Part shown: in pieces, positions 3,879 through 34,094 of the stretch | How the letters are laid out: each line of letters starts with the position of its first letter | How positions within the stretch are numbered: the first letter of the stretch is position 1 | Origin: Candidatus Gottesmanbacteria bacterium | GTDB lineage: Bacteria; Patescibacteriota; Microgenomatia; UBA10105; UBA927 | Direction: 5' to 3' | Length of the DNA: 64,000 bases | NCBI GenBank assembly: GCA_963809665.1 | Contig: CAWEKC010000003.1 | Location: forward strand, 105,473-169,472 | Position numbers and translations under genes: made by a program | The notes under the pieces: generated by a model | The model's input: only the letters and a program-made list of their open reading frames with translations | What the model was told of the DNA's origin: nothing | The model's database searches: none

Positions 3879-5000
3879 ATGAAAAAGCAAAAAACCGTCT
3901 CCGATGTAGTTCTTCAGAAAATTGTCCCTCACGAGGCCCTCACATTTGACGATATATTGCTCCTTCCGGGATATGCGGATTTCAAGCGTCAGGACGTGGA
4001 TTTGTCTACACAACTCTGTCCCGGTATCCGACTGAAACTTCCGGTTATTTCTTCTCCCATGGATACGGTAACCGAAGAGGCAATGGCCGTGGCACTGGCA
4101 CGCGCCGGAGCGTTGGGCGTGCTACACCGGAATTTATCGGTTGCAAGTCAGGCCCGGATGGTGGCGAAAATAAAACGGTTATGCTTACCGGTTGCGGCCG
4201 CCGTCGGGGTCGGGGAGGATTTTGACGTGCGGGTATCGGCGCTGGTGGCCGCGGGTGTTGATTTGGTTGTGGTGGATTCCGGACACGGGCATACAAAATT
4301 TATTATCGATGCGGTGAAAACAATTAAAAAAACGTATCACCGGCTACCGGTGATGGCGGGGAATATTGCGACATTTGACGGGGCAAAAGCTCTTATCTCG
4401 GCGGGGACTGATATACTGCGCGTCGGCATGGGTCCGGGCAGTATCTGCACAACCCGCATCGTCACAGGTATGGGGGTGCCGCAAATCAGCGCCATTTCTG
4501 CGGTGAAACGCGCCACGGAAGGCACTTCTGTTTCCGTCGTTGCCGACGGCGGCATCCGGCAGATGGGGGATATGGCAAAGGCATTCGCGTTCGGAGCGGA
4601 CGCCGTCATGCTGGGGTCGCTATTGGCACGGCTTACCGAGGCGCCGGGGCGTATTGTCCGGTTGAAGGGAAAACGGTACAAAGAATACCGCGGGATGGGA
4701 TCAATAGCTGCGATGAAAAAAGGCGGAGCTGAACGGTACGGCCAGTCGAGACTCGCTGATACAAAGCAACTCATAGCCGAGGGGGTTGAAGGACTGGTCC
4801 CGCTTAACGGGTCGGCCGCTACGTATCTGACCCAGATTGCGGGGAGTCTAAGGTCATCATTCTATTATATCGGGGCAAGGAATATCCTCGAATTTTTCCG
4901 GAAATCCCGCTGCATCAAGATTTCAAATGCCGGACTTTTGGAAAGTCATCCGCACAGTATCGACATTGTTGATACCGGGACGAATTATTCCCTGAAGTAA
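3879..5000 (+). CDS. guaB: IMP dehydrogenase, CBS-less form
   Basis: Catalytic loop GMGPGSICTTR, flap YRGMGSIAAMKKGGAERYGQ, C-terminal ESHPHSI; no CBS pair inserted (373 aa). Confidence 0.7.
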   Translation: MKKQKTVSDVVLQKIVPHEALTFDDILLLPGYADFKRQDVDLSTQLCPGIRLKLPVISSPMDTVTEEAMAVALARAGALGVLHRNLSVASQARMVAKIKRLCLPVAAAVGVGEDFDVRVSALVAAGVDLVVVDSGHGHTKFIIDAVKTIKKTYHRLPVMAGNIATFDGAKALISAGTDILRVGMGPGSICTTRIVTGMGVPQISAISAVKRATEGTSVSVVADGGIRQMGDMAKAFAFGADAVMLGSLLARLTEAPGRIVRLKGKRYKEYRGMGSIAAMKKGGAERYGQSRLADTKQLIAEGVEGLVPLNGSAATYLTQIAGSLRSSFYYIGARNILEFFRKSRCIKISNAGLLESHPHSIDIVDTGTNYSLK

Positions 5001-6466: not shown

Positions 6467-7342
6467 ATGGAAGAAATAACATTACAAGCGCTTCTTGAAG
6501 CCGGTTGTCATTTCGGACACAAAGCCGAACGGTGGCATCCGAAAGCCGCAGGATTCATTTACACGAAAAAAGACGGCATACATATCATAGATTTAGCTAA
6601 AACCAAAATCGGACTGGAAGCGGCTGCGGCATTTGTGAAAGACCTTGCCGGGAGCGGCAAAGAGGTCGTTTTTGTGGGTACCAAACGCCAGGCGTCGGGC
6701 GTCGTCAAACAGGAAGCGGCTGCTGCAGGTGCTCCGTACTTCGTCGAACGCTGGATCGGCGGATTTTTGACTAACTGGGACCAGATTAAAAAGAATATTG
6801 ATAAAATTCTCAAAATGGAAGCAGACAGGGCGTCCGGAGCCTGGAAAAAGTTCCCCAAGCACGAACAGGTGAAAATGGGACGGTATCTGGACCGCATCAA
6901 GATTTATTACGGCGGAGTACTTTCCATCAAAGCGATTCCGCAGGCACTGGTGGTCGTTGACGTCAAGAAAGAAGAACCCGCTGTCCGGGAGGGAAAACGC
7001 GTCGGGGTTCCGGTGGTGGGTATTGTGGATACGAACTCCGATCCCACACCGATTGACTATGTGATTCCGGCAAACGACGATGCTGTCGGTTCCATTCAAT
7101 ACATTATTCACGTTCTCGCGGGCGCTTATGGTGAAGGAAAAGCAGCGTGGGAAAAGGCGAATAAGGAAGAGACGGCAAGAATCGAAGCGGAAAAAGCAAA
7201 AACCGTAAAAGCCGTCCCCGGGGTTAAAGCACCGTTGTGCCGGAGGTTAAAAACAGAAATCGAACCGACGCAAAAGCTAAAGAGGCAAGAATTAAAAAAA
7301 CCTCGCAAAACTGACGAAAGCAGGCGTAAAATAATAGTATGA
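6467..7342 (+). CDS. rpsB: 30S ribosomal protein S2
   Basis: LLEAGCHFGH...RWHPK N-terminus, conserved uS2 core, Lys/Glu-rich C-terminal tail. Confidence 0.9.
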   Translation: MEEITLQALLEAGCHFGHKAERWHPKAAGFIYTKKDGIHIIDLAKTKIGLEAAAAFVKDLAGSGKEVVFVGTKRQASGVVKQEAAAAGAPYFVERWIGGFLTNWDQIKKNIDKILKMEADRASGAWKKFPKHEQVKMGRYLDRIKIYYGGVLSIKAIPQALVVVDVKKEEPAVREGKRVGVPVVGIVDTNSDPTPIDYVIPANDDAVGSIQYIIHVLAGAYGEGKAAWEKANKEETARIEAEKAKTVKAVPGVKAPLCRRLKTEIEPTQKLKRQELKKPRKTDESRRKIIV

Positions 7343-7794
7343 AAATTTCACTTGAACTTCTTAAGAAACTCCGTGCAGCTACTGGTGCCGGTGTGTCGGA
7401 TTGCAGGCAGGCGCTTGAGGATGCCGGAGGCGACTACGCAAAAGCAAAAAAACTCATTATGGAGCGGGGACTGGAAAAAGCCGCGAAAAAGGCAGGACGC
7501 CAAACCCAACAGGGATTAATTGAATCCTACGTACACGCCGGACGCGTCGGGGTACTTGTCGAACTTCGCTGTGAAACGGATTTTGTGGCGCGTACAGGTG
7601 ATTTTAAAAACTTAGCTCACGAACTTGCCCTTCAGATTGCATCCATGAATCCGAAAAACGTAAAGGAATTGCTCGTCAGCCCGTACATCCGTGATGAAGG
7701 GATTACGATTGAAGCGCTCGTCAAACAAACGGTCGCTAAAGTCGGCGAAAACATCACGGTTGCGCGCTTTACACGGATTGCGTTGGGTACATAA
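7339..7794 (+). CDS. tsf: Elongation factor Ts (short form)
   Basis: N-terminal UBA-like LLKKLRAATGAGVSDCRQALEDAGGDYAKA; 151 aa short EF-Ts; overlaps rpsB stop. Confidence 0.85.
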   Translation: MKISLELLKKLRAATGAGVSDCRQALEDAGGDYAKAKKLIMERGLEKAAKKAGRQTQQGLIESYVHAGRVGVLVELRCETDFVARTGDFKNLAHELALQIASMNPKNVKELLVSPYIRDEGITIEALVKQTVAKVGENITVARFTRIALGT

Positions 7795-28006: not shown

Positions 28007-29063
28007 ATGAATTTGAAAATCGGGATCGTCGGACTGGCAAACGTGGGGCAAGTCAACGCTGTTCAATGCGCTGCTGAAAAAACAGCTTGCGTTTGCTGCA
28101 AATTATCCGTTTGCGACGATTGAACCGAATATCGGCGTCGTACCGGTTCCGGACGACCGGCTCGCGCGTCTTGCGGATATTGTTGAAAAAGAAGAGGGAA
28201 CGAGACCTCCCCTGCGGCCTGCGACCGTTGAGTTTGTGGATATCGCGGGACTGGTGAAGGGGGCATCGGAAGGACAGGGACTCGGCAATAAATTCCTTTC
28301 GCATATCCGTGAGGTACATATTATTTGCCACCTCGTCCGTCTTTTCCCGAACCCCGACATCGTTCATGTGATGGGAGATATTGATCCGGCCCGTGACCGG
28401 GAAATCGTGGAAACCGAACTGATGCTGGCCGACATGCAAACGCTTACCAAACAGACGGAACCGAATCAAACGGCTTCAAAAGAGGAGAGGGCGCGGTGGA
28501 ATGTTATTGCAAAACTAAAAGACGGTCTTAATGTAGGTAAGCTTGCCAGACTGGTCGTTACCGATGCTGAGGAACGTTTATTGGTTCGTGACCTTCAACT
28601 CTTAACGATGAAACCGATGCTGTATGTCGCAAACGTATCGGAAAATCAATTAAAAGAGAAAAACGATATGCTCGCCATATGCGCTGAAACGGAATCACAA
28701 CTGGCAGGGTTGACCGGAACAGAACAGAAAGAATATCTGCAGTCTTTGGGGCTTGAAGCGTCCGGTCTTGACCGGCTTATTCAGAAAGCCTACGAAATGC
28801 TCGGGCTCATTTCCTTCCTTACCTGCGGGGGTATCGAGGCGCGTGCCTGGACGATAGAAAACGGGACAAAAGCGCCGCAGGCGGCGGGAGTTATCCACAC
28901 GGATTTTGAGAAAAAGTTTATTAAAGCAGATTGCATATCGTTTAAGGAGTTTGTAGCGGTGGGGGGCTGGAAAAAAGCCAGAGAGCTTGGCAAAGTGCGG
29001 GTTGAGGGCAAAGAATATGTCATGCAGGATGGAGATGTGGTTGAGTTTAAGGTCGGAACATGA
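28007..29063 (+). CDS. ychF: Ribosome-binding ATPase YchF, interrupted by extra G in GGGG run at 28045-28048
   Basis: ATG at 28007 gives MNLKIGIVGLANVG; removing one G restores GKSTLFNALL...ANYPFATIEPN...VEFVDIAGLVKGASEGQGLGNKFL; TGS domain at C-terminus. Confidence 0.8.
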
Positions 29064-32377: not shown

Positions 32378-33085
32378 TTATAACCCTATAGATGCGGTGA
32401 CGGGATAATGATCGGAGAACCGTGTCCGCTCGAGTGAAAGAGAAGAAAGCGTGCATCGTTTTACAAACACATAATCCAGTTGATATCTCCATAGTGCCAT
32501 CCTATATGTTGACAACCGCGTCGCGGTGGTTTGAAACCCGATTTTTTTCATACGTCGGATTAGTGTATCTTTTGCACGAATTCTCGGGATATTAAAATCA
32601 CCGGTTATAATAAGCCCGTGGTTGTGCGTAGCCAAATGATCGGTAATGAGACGGAGCTGTTTATAGCGTGACCGGTTAGCGGCAAGAAACACTAAATGGG
32701 TGTTTGCGACGGTAATAGTTTTACGGCCGACGCGGAATGTCGTCAGAAGACAACTTTTTTCCATCGGATTTTTCAACAATGATTTTTCCATTGGGTGGAC
32801 TCCCATAAGAAGCGTTTTTGAATGCATCAAACGTAGTTTTTTTTTCCGGAATAATGTTACAATTCCGAATATTTTTTTTCTGAAGATAAATGAATCTGTG
32901 AACCGATGTCCCCAGTCACGGGAGAGTGACCGGTAAAATGTCGTAAGATATACAACGGGAAATTCCTGGAGACAAATAATATCTGCGTCGGTCTGGTTTT
33001 CGATCCAGGAAATAATATCAATGAGTCGTTTTCCGAAATGAATGTTGTATGTAACAACGCGTAACATTTTAGACGTGTGAGGCAA
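32378..33085 (-). CDS. Endonuclease/exonuclease/phosphatase (EEP) family protein
   Basis: VVTYNIHFG N-terminus, DIICLQEF, C-terminal SDHYPV motif. Confidence 0.7.
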   Translation of the reverse strand: MPHTSKMLRVVTYNIHFGKRLIDIISWIENQTDADIICLQEFPVVYLTTFYRSLSRDWGHRFTDSFIFRKKIFGIVTLFRKKKLRLMHSKTLLMGVHPMEKSLLKNPMEKSCLLTTFRVGRKTITVANTHLVFLAANRSRYKQLRLITDHLATHNHGLIITGDFNIPRIRAKDTLIRRMKKIGFQTTATRLSTYRMALWRYQLDYVFVKRCTLSSLSLERTRFSDHYPVTASIGL

Positions 33086-33776
33086 GGAGAGCTTCAGTAA
33101 TTTTTCCCATTTTCCCTTCGATAATGTCGTCCAGATTATGCCAGGATTTTCCGATACGGTGGTCGGTCACACGGTTTTGCGGAAAGTTGTACGTCCGGAT
33201 TTTTTCCGCACGCATACCGCGGCCGATGATGCTTCGTGCAGCTCCTAACGCCGCGGCGGCTTTCGTTTCTTCAAGTTCCCATAATTTTGCCCTCAGCATT
33301 GAGAGGGCTACCTGGCGGTTTTGATATTGATCCCGTTCAGTCTGGCAGGTGACGACAATACCGGTTAGTTTATGCCGTATGCGCACTGCCGAACTTACTT
33401 TATTTACATTCTGCCCGCCTTTGCCGCCGCTCCGGTAAAATTCCAACTCAATATCTTCCGGGCGGATGATAACGTCAGTTTCAGGAATTTCTGGAAGTAC
33501 TGCGACGGTTGCCGTGGATGTATGAATCCGTCCGGCGCGTTCGGTCGAGGGCACACGCTGTACGCGGTGGGTTCCCGCTTCATACTGTAATTTCGTGAAT
33601 ACCTGCAGCCCGCGTAGCCGGATAGCCATATCCGAGATAGCCTGTGTTTTCCAGCCCGATATACCAGCGTACCGAAGATACATTCGCATAAGATCGGCTG
33701 CCCATATACGGGCTTCTTCGCCGCCCGGCCCGGGCCTGAATTCCATAATTGCGACATCCGGGTTCACAGAATTCAT
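33069..33776 (-). CDS. prfA: Peptide chain release factor 1 lacking N-terminal domain 1
   Basis: RVQRVPSTE (PxT tripeptide context of RF1), GGQ motif (SGGKGGQNVNK), RTYNFPQNRVTDHR; only 235 aa; upstream gene rpmE abuts at 33786 leaving no room for domain 1. Confidence 0.75.
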   Translation of the reverse strand: MNSVNPDVAIMEFRPGPGGEEARIWAADLMRMYLRYAGISGWKTQAISDMAIRLRGLQVFTKLQYEAGTHRVQRVPSTERAGRIHTSTATVAVLPEIPETDVIIRPEDIELEFYRSGGKGGQNVNKVSSAVRIRHKLTGIVVTCQTERDQYQNRQVALSMLRAKLWELEETKAAAALGAARSIIGRGMRAEKIRTYNFPQNRVTDHRIGKSWHNLDDIIEGKMGKITEALLASHV

Positions 33777-33785
33777 ACGGAAGAT

Positions 33786-34094
33786 CTACTTTAAGCCCAT
33801 TAACATGTCTTTGAGGGATTTCGGATTGCGGAGTGACTCGGCACGTTCCAGTTTCTTTTTCTTCCGTGCGGCCAGTACCGTTGATTGGGCAGCAGCTGTT
33901 TTTACTTTTTTCTGGAATCGTTCGACGCGGCCCATCGTATCAACAAATTTCATTTCCCCGGTAAAAAATGGATGGCATTTGCCGCAGATTTCCACGCGAA
34001 GCTCCGGCTTGGTGGCGCCTACCGTAAACCGGTTACCGCAGGCGCACGTAACGACCGCGTCCGGATACCATGTTGGGTGAATCGATTTTTTCAT
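33786..34094 (-). CDS. rpmE: 50S ribosomal protein L31 with C-terminal basic extension
   Basis: [23 protein letters not shown]...[10 protein letters not shown] zinc-ribbon bL31. Confidence 0.85.

Follow-up and report, generated by a model that had tools for sequence, protein, structure and literature searches.

A release factor 1 naturally lacking domain 1, encoded behind rpmE in Candidatus Gottesmanbacteria

The stretch of DNA analysed here, referred to as the window, comprises 64,000 nt from a Candidatus Gottesmanbacteria bacterium, an ultra-small member of the Microgenomates/Patescibacteria (contig CAWEKC010000003.1, positions 105,473-169,472, assembly GCA_963809665.1). Its minus strand carries a compact run of three genes: rpmE, encoding ribosomal protein L31 (33786..34094, 102 aa, stop codon TAG, identified by its Pfam L31 match); prfA, encoding a peptide chain release factor 1 (RF1) of 235 aa (33069..33776, ATG start, TAA stop); and a gene of the endonuclease/exonuclease/phosphatase (EEP) family (32378..33067, Pfam PF03372). 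The prfA product consists of domains 2, 3 and 4 only. A preliminary description of this DNA, made from the sequence, had proposed that it is an RF1-type factor naturally devoid of domain 1, and the comparisons reported here confirm that the domain is missing and support this reading.

Two motifs can be read directly on the minus strand within prfA: the PxT tripeptide P76-S77-T78 (codons CCC TCG ACC, 33543..33551), and the catalytic GGQ, G120-G121-Q122 (codons GGC GGG CAG, 33411..33419). The tripeptide belongs to the recognition loop RVQRVPSTE and lies inside V72-QRVPSTERAGRIHTS-87, so that both the RF1-type loop and the GGQ originally claimed for this protein are present. Residues Q73, T78 and T86, which we take to be the equivalents of Q181, T186 and T194 of T. 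thermophilus RF1, are invariant across a 98-sequence RF1 alignment, as is the GGQ. The protein therefore holds the codon-reading superdomain 2/4, all the RF1-type recognition residues, and the GGQ domain 3. Pfam assigns residues 8-91 to the domain-2 part and residues 99-207 to the GGQ domain, the latter with a complete RF-1 domain (PF00472, profile positions 2-116 of 116, E value 1e-36).

What is missing lies at the N-terminus. The match to the PCRF profile is limited to positions 101-194 of 194, which bears out the expectation that its N-terminal part would be lacking. The best NCBIfam matches are the RF1 equivalog models, at scores below their cutoffs: NF001859 aligns over profile positions 106-341 of 347 with 313 bits (cutoff 400), and TIGR00019 over positions 113-349 of 361 with 308 bits (cutoff 423). 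The product thus shows the GGQ domain, the RF1-type recognition loop and the rpmE-prfA position that are typical of the RF1 family, and lacks domain 1 and a full-length equivalog score. It does not qualify as an RF2, since the RF2 model TIGR00020 gives 203 bits against a cutoff of 370 and the loop reads PST, not SPF. In alignments with structures from the PDB, residue 9 pairs with residue 111 of E. coli RF1, and residue 6 with residue 85 of T. maritima RF1. From these offsets, residue 1 corresponds to about residue 103 of the E. coli protein, in agreement with the start at around residue 100 given earlier. In addition, a domain-2 beta-hairpin is 10-11 residues shorter around residues 46-51, a feature that the preliminary description does not mention (window 33623-33640), where the segment ...ETDLGGIRE... 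of T. maritima RF1 is missing. This deletion is shared with the related proteins P0122 and P0123, with P0126 and with the RF1 of locus L040, but not with the domain-1-less P0163 or with P0129.

The junction between rpmE and prfA (33777..33788, minus strand) leaves no room for the missing domain. It consists of the rpmE TAG (33786-33788), a 9-nt spacer, ATCTTCCGT, and the prfA ATG. The TAG stands in the prfA reading frame, three codons upstream of the ATG; therefore at most three codons, none of them a start, could be added upstream, and an N-terminal extension is impossible. The view that there is neither space nor an alternative frame for domain 1 consequently stands, and no longer in-frame start exists, the rpmE stop blocking the prfA frame. 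The preliminary description had placed rpmE upstream on the same strand, which is correct, at a distance of 10 bp, which we measure as 9 nt. No GGAGG-like Shine-Dalgarno sequence is seen in the 9-nt spacer. The space where the coding sequence of RF1 domain 1 would belong is taken up by an intact and conserved rpmE. On the other side, the ATG of the EEP gene lies 1 nt past the prfA stop, in the position that holds a PrmC-like methyltransferase gene in locus L129, where RF1 is full length. The EEP gene downstream of prfA is also found in the gene calls of an identical contig and of one relative. Under the standard bacterial code, 77 crude gene calls in the window give a coding density of 93% and end in TAA (42), TGA (26) or TAG (9). 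The TGA-ended genes include some whose Pfam matches reach the end of the profile, which upholds the earlier statement that TGA is a stop codon in this genome.

L31 itself is extended in this clade. The window protein has a C-terminal extension of approximately 35 aa, and the Pfam/NCBIfam L31 match covers only residues 1-63/69. The extension is encoded by the C-terminal third of rpmE (window 33786-33890), is rich in lysine, and has a near-invariant end, ...PKSLK(E/D)MLMGLK. L31 measures 99-103 aa in the window clade versus 72-88 aa in L041, L043 and L129, and tails akin to this extension, PKT(L/I)REM..., are present in the Amesbacteria and P0122 loci. The tail was considered as a replacement for domain 1 and rejected, given that it does not co-vary with the truncation of RF1. 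A read-through fusion of L31 and RF1 across the in-frame TAG was likewise rejected as a conserved feature, as the spacer length varies with respect to frame among the relatives and the spacer of L012 contains a stop.

The short form of RF1 is not peculiar to this contig. The best 120 database homologs of the prfA product are all 225-253 aa long, with 79-100% identity. A scan of one genome per GTDB species gave 26 species loci which, together with L042 (on the same chromosome as L001 and fetched separately), sum up to 27 Gottesmanbacteria-type loci, in genomes named Ca. Gottesmanbacteria, Woesebacteria or Patescibacteria. All 27 encode the short RF1 in its form of approximately 232 aa, and thus none of these close relatives carries a full-length RF1 at the same locus, a finding that would have spoken against a natural truncation. 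Ca. Gottesmanbacteria accounts for most of the genomes with informative names, and the set includes some closed chromosomes of approximately 1 Mb. In the same scan, the matches from Chloroflexota, cyanobacteria and actinobacteria (around 50% identity) are full length, at 359-367 aa. In 24 intact orthologs, an in-frame stop occurs 0-17 codons upstream of a conserved start, MN(x)D(x)AI(x)EFR. An identical RF1 protein, with the same neighbour genes, is found on an independent read-archive contig. Compared with 15 orthologs, the proportion of nonsynonymous differences (pN) is 0.07-0.20 and that of synonymous differences (pS) 0.69-0.82, with synonymous sites saturated, and the ratio of the corresponding rates (dN/dS) is 0.04-0.10 where it can be calculated. 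Hence, prfA is under strong purifying selection, and its short form is fixed across the lineage.

A few of the related loci show local changes. L026 has an internal deletion or fusion, and L037 a frameshift. In L004, a partial copy of the prfA 5' end (MNPDIAIMEFRPGPGGEE...) lies at 3911-4133, upstream of the intact gene. L022 (3536-4000) and L025 (3576-4000) have an insertion of 425-465 nt between rpmE and prfA, with a small open reading frame (ORF) whose product presumably resembles a protein of the four-helix-bundle or '23S rRNA intervening-sequence' type. This small ORF is not domain 1, as judged by its negative result with the domain-1 profile described next.

The profile hidden Markov model (HMM) of domain 1 was made from 74 full-length RF1s. 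It recovered every full-length control, with E values between 1e-20 and 1e-28, and even the reduced domain of L040 (9e-5). No separately encoded domain 1 was found with it in six-frame translations of the window and of the Gottesmanbacteria loci (best E value 2), and therefore the domain is not encoded as a separate piece nearby.

Regarding its fold, the prfA product was modelled by AlphaFold2 from the 98-sequence alignment, with a predicted local distance difference test score (pLDDT) of 91.4 and a predicted template-modelling score (pTM) of 0.74. In Foldseek comparisons, the model fits the ribosome-bound RF1 of T. thermophilus and E. coli with a template-modelling (TM) score of 0.85-0.89 and a root-mean-square deviation of 2.1-2.9 Å, whereas its fit to the compact shapes that free RF1 and RF2 adopt in crystals is much poorer (TM score around 0.57). 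The protein shares 43-50% identity with the solved RF1s. Like the canonical RF1 of E. coli, T. thermophilus and T. maritima (TIGR00019/NF001859), it has domains 2-4, both the PxT and the GGQ motif and the switch-loop region, and its gene follows rpmE; its model superposes on the ribosome-bound forms. Contrary to canonical RF1, it lacks the helical domain 1 of approximately 100 residues and the 10-11 hairpin residues of domain 2, it scores under the model cutoffs, and the gene downstream is not prmC.

The same rpmE-prfA position is occupied by a full-length RF1 in the cyanobacterium L032, and among the relatives of the window clade, the syntenic locus shows RF1 proteins with progressively shorter N-termini, of 367, 303, 256 and 232 aa. 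The longest, P0137, is full length with 367 aa and encoded in the order L31-RF1-PrmC-like methyltransferase, near HtrA, L9 and CtpB (L129). P0122, with 303 aa, starts at about position 45-55 of the RF1 profile, in the order HisS-EamA-L31-RF1. P0123, from Ca. Amesbacteria, has 256 aa with a 20-residue stub, in the order YchF-S6-SSB-CtpB-HtrA-L31-RF1-EamA-HisS. The window clade, with 232-235 aa and the order rpmE-prfA-EEP, has no domain 1.

Short forms are also found outside this series. After clustering at 50%, the Gottesmanbacteria form makes up one cluster, with further short representatives beside it. P0126 (232 aa) and P0163 (242 aa) start at or within the end of rpmE. A profile of these short forms returned about 110 sequences of 238-255 aa among its top 120 matches which, where named, come from Ca. 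Wolfebacteria, Colwellbacteria, Zambryskibacteria, Parcubacteria, Paceibacterota and Amesbacteria, under the source names 'peptide chain release factor 1' or 'PCRF domain-containing protein'. All the short and intermediate proteins compared score as RF1 over RF2. In a neighbour-joining tree of the domain 2-4 core, a rough distance tree, domain-1-less forms fall into at least three clades, which also hold full-length or intermediate members. This distribution points to a repeated and independent loss of the domain, so that domain 1 would have been reduced or lost several times across the Candidate Phyla Radiation (CPR, Patescibacteria), with the Parcubacteria-type forms as separate losses. The description of the window protein as an unusual minimal factor therefore holds for a naturally domain-1-less RF1, found in 27 of 27 loci, but not for an isolated oddity, since the trait is lineage-wide and recurs in the CPR. 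Four longer proteins that could have been tandem release factor fusions (P0121, P0124, P0270 and P0274, 407-481 aa) contain duplicated RF1 segments, look like assembly artefacts, and were set aside.

Domain-1-less proteins resembling RF1 are also encoded by phages. Those from IMG/VR loci L089, L091, L092, L094, L095, L101 and L104 have around 225-265 aa, share the start region ..ILE(I/L)..GEGG.. and the motif VQRVPPTE, and score higher with the RF1 than with the RF2 model. They differ from the window protein in being far more divergent (around 205 bits with the RF1 model), with QTS instead of HTS and altered GGQ surroundings in several of them, and in being phage-borne, some of them on contigs with in-frame TGA that suggests recoding. 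More broadly, the IMG/VR loci L048-L127 (for example L089, L091, L095, L100, L108 and L115) contain release factor genes on large phage contigs, many of 200-570 kb, encoding full-length RF2-like, PrfH-like and divergent domain-1-less RF1-like proteins, with several cut by in-frame TGA. Some RF2-like phage genes also contain the CPR-like signature 'GGQNVNKV', so that a DNA pattern built on it would not be specific. When IMG/VR was scanned with a mixed RF1/RF2 profile, the matches were phage release factors, with no CPR RF2 among them.

We consider it highly probable, from the sequence comparisons, that this gene is an orthologous and functional prfA whose product lost the helical domain 1 through reductive evolution. 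Most likely, the product would be the ordinary UAA/UAG release factor of the organism, working without the domain-1 contacts to bL12/uL11 and RF3. It would enter the A site at UAA or UAG and hydrolyse peptidyl-tRNA like any RF1, but it would bind with no contact to the bL12 C-terminal domain and the uL11 stalk base, which aid delivery in E. coli. It would equally act without domain-1-dependent communication with RF3, leaving the ribosome spontaneously or through RRF and EF-G. UGA would be left to a separate RF2 whose gene lies outside the window; such an RF2 is expected, given the strictly RF1-type loop and the common use of TGA as a stop. In function, the nearest precedent is an E. coli RF1 engineered to lack domain 1 (Mora, Zavialov, Ehrenberg and Buckingham 2003), with essentially the same architecture. 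According to the account of this work in PMC1586002, that protein supports peptide release in vitro and functions in vivo with unchanged codon specificity, and domain 1 is implicated in communication with RF3. As portrayed in PMC1586002 and PMC6076264, it is a laboratory construct that allows slow growth only, whereas the truncation described here is natural, fixed and lineage-wide. Cryo-electron microscopy shows domain I of RF1 connected to uL11 through a bL12 C-terminal domain; bL12 promotes RF1 action, and a direct contact between RF1 and RF3 is not seen (PMC6076264). Furthermore, 72 of 191 genomes lack RF3, and a weaker binding of class-I factors has been proposed as compensation (PMC1780047). 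The fewer ribosome contacts of the short RF1 may result in such weaker binding, the compensation predicted for RF3-less bacteria, and an organism that grows slowly and has a reduced genome could tolerate the loss of the domain, which might even help self-recycling.

Several points weigh against this interpretation. The RF3-less Bacillus and Mycoplasma retain domain 1 of RF1, so that the absence of RF3 is not by itself a sufficient explanation for the missing domain. No second release factor gene was found by tblastn in the 64-kb window, which represents a small part of a genome of approximately 1 Mb (1.0-1.2 Mb in related chromosomes), leaving space for a second, full-length RF1 elsewhere. Finally, RF3 can recycle RF1 lacking domain I, according to earlier work as cited in PMC6076264, and independence from RF3 is thus not a necessary consequence of the truncation.

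The existence of natural domain-1-less release factor paralogs (PrfH, PMC1586002), the scores below the RF1 equivalog cutoffs, and a search covering only the 64-kb window would all fit a specialised paralog with a rescue or auxiliary role, PrfH- or ArfB-like, while a canonical full-length RF1 elsewhere carries out ordinary termination. We regard this as improbable. PrfH (RF-H, TIGR03072) is likewise a natural class-I homolog of similar size without domain 1. However, PrfH is a paralog of the RF2 type whose recognition loop is altered, and a gene of the RtcB family always lies upstream of it, whereas the window protein has the RF1 loop with all codon-recognition residues invariant, rpmE upstream, and no RtcB among its neighbours. 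The window protein reaches only 70 bits with the PrfH model (cutoff 167). ArfB (ICT1, NF006718) has the GGQ domain in common with the prfA product but no codon-recognition domains, and places a C-terminal tail in the empty mRNA channel, whereas the prfA product has the 2/4 superdomain; the ArfB model gives 52 bits (cutoff 100) over residues 101-137 only. Moreover, the gene occupies the ancestral rpmE-prfA position, where full-length RF1 is encoded in the syntenic L129 and in the cyanobacterium L032. The full-length P0137 from the former also scores under the cutoff (392 versus 400 bits), and the low score is therefore a matter of divergence, not of paralogy. A factor that reads all three stops as the sole class-I factor, rendering RF2 unnecessary, would account for the lack of an RF2 gene in the window together with the frequent use of TGA. 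This appears extremely improbable, as the loop is strictly RF1-type (QRVPSTE...IHTS, invariant across RF1s) and 64 kb is too small a sample to expect prfB.

The domain could also act in trans, either as a separate polypeptide or with its role taken over by the L31 tail or the EEP protein, an arrangement to which the conserved L31 extension and the tight packing of rpmE, prfA and the EEP gene would lend themselves. It seems very improbable, considering that neither the window nor any related locus yields a match to the domain-1 profile, that L31 is short (72 and 88 aa) in the other domain-1-less lineages L041 and L043, and that the long L31 also occurs where part of domain 1 persists (L040 and L047). 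In addition, L31 sits at the bridge between the head and the central protuberance, far from the stalk base. As for an artefact or a pseudogene, the source is a metagenome-assembled genome, and L026 and L037 do show local damage, which might suggest that the sequence or its assembly is wrong, that the start was mis-called or that the gene is decaying. This reading, whose probability we put as close to nil, is refuted by the comparisons and by the signs of selection: the same architecture recurs in independent assemblies from many studies, including the closed chromosomes, and in the identical protein from the read archive; dN/dS stays below 0.1; and an intact, conserved rpmE fills the upstream space. 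The orthologous prfA shortened by reductive evolution is thus the explanation that we retain.

The stop codon of rpmE may add a regulatory layer to this locus. TAG is the only stop codon read by RF1 alone. Besides the window, 20 of 26 related species have it at the end of rpmE, the other six using TAA and none TGA, against a background TAG share of 13% among the gene calls of the same loci; as the species are related, a nominal P value for this enrichment is overstated, yet synonymous sites are saturated between them. TAG also ends rpmE in the Amesbacteria, P0122 and L040 loci. The stop codon comparison covered loci L001-L026, L037, L040, L045 and L047 beside the window. In relatives with an rpmE-prfA spacer of 70-95 nt, a long hairpin starts 0-16 nt after the TAG. 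These hairpins were missed by a simple terminator scan owing to its stem and loop limits, and were evaluated by single-sequence folding with shuffles, the spacers being unalignable. The five strongest, which begin 0-10 nt after the rpmE TAG, are those of L013 (3918-3994, -37.9 kcal/mol, z -7.6), L015 (3920-4003, z -6.0), L020 (361-446, z -5.6), L017 (3919-4003, z -4.3) and L026 (3914-4003, z -4.2). A U-run abutting the prfA AUG follows the hairpin in the first four and in L005, but not in L026. In five other loci the hairpin is weaker, and the window has none, with the 9-nt in-frame junction instead.

As folded, the spacer hairpin looks like a terminator or attenuator, and the rpmE UAG may serve as a sensor of the RF1 level coupled to prfA expression. 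Under this hypothesis, a ribosome that waits for RF1 on the UAG would open the hairpin at its base, and its dwell time would control a terminator upstream of prfA; in the window, the rpmE UAG would instead be coupled directly to the prfA AUG located 9 nt downstream. Independently of such sensing, expression of prfA in the window is probably coupled to that of rpmE, given the short distance between the RF1-specific rpmE stop and the prfA start. A far broader proposal can be formulated, in which termination in the CPR has been rebuilt on minimal class-I factors, with domain 1 lost repeatedly as RF3 and bL12/uL11 delivery disappeared, RF2 perhaps truncated as well, and RF1 sensed through the rpmE UAG. 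Such a scheme is speculative, and we consider it unlikely as a whole.

Other genes of the window deserve a brief mention. EF-Ts, on the plus strand at 7339-7794, is a second shortened translation factor, with 151 aa and an EF_TS match limited to profile positions 1-76 of 204. It was missed by the crude gene caller, which over-extended the neighbouring ORF of the ribosome recycling factor (RRF) upstream. In the unrelated CPR locus L043, EF-Ts is called at 131 aa. A YchF-like ORF (28236-29063, 275 aa) matches only the C-terminal domain in Pfam, while its L042 ortholog has 354 aa with the GTPase domain, which suggests either that the start was called wrongly or that the window sequence contains a frameshift. 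Two adjacent thymidylate kinase paralogs (193 and 214 aa) followed by a thymidine kinase lie at 644-2440, and thymidylate synthase, DHFR, SHMT, FolD and 5-formyltetrahydrofolate cyclo-ligase are encoded elsewhere in the window. To our knowledge, this set of nucleotide-salvage and folate genes is fuller than usual for a CPR genome.

In full-text literature searches, no account of truncated release factors in the CPR or Patescibacteria came up. The sequences of domain-1-less CPR RF1s are already public and partly annotated, some of them as 'hypothetical' or 'PCRF domain-containing protein'. As far as we know, every bacterium studied to date has an RF1 with domain 1, including RF3-less and minimal-genome species; that a factor can do without it was known before only through a laboratory-made E. 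coli RF1 and through specialised paralogs. One practical consequence is that, with scores below the TIGR00019 and NF001859 cutoffs, pipelines for marker-gene completeness or phylogeny may count RF1 as missing in these genomes. The short RF1 also offers a natural minimal factor for dissecting the contributions of domain 1, bL12 and RF3 to termination. Beside the 151-aa EF-Ts, it would represent a further case of the pared-down translation apparatus of the CPR, in which the same loss appears to have arisen several times. To judge from these sequences, an RF1 made of domains 2-4 would be all that core termination needs in vivo, at least in slow-growing symbionts.

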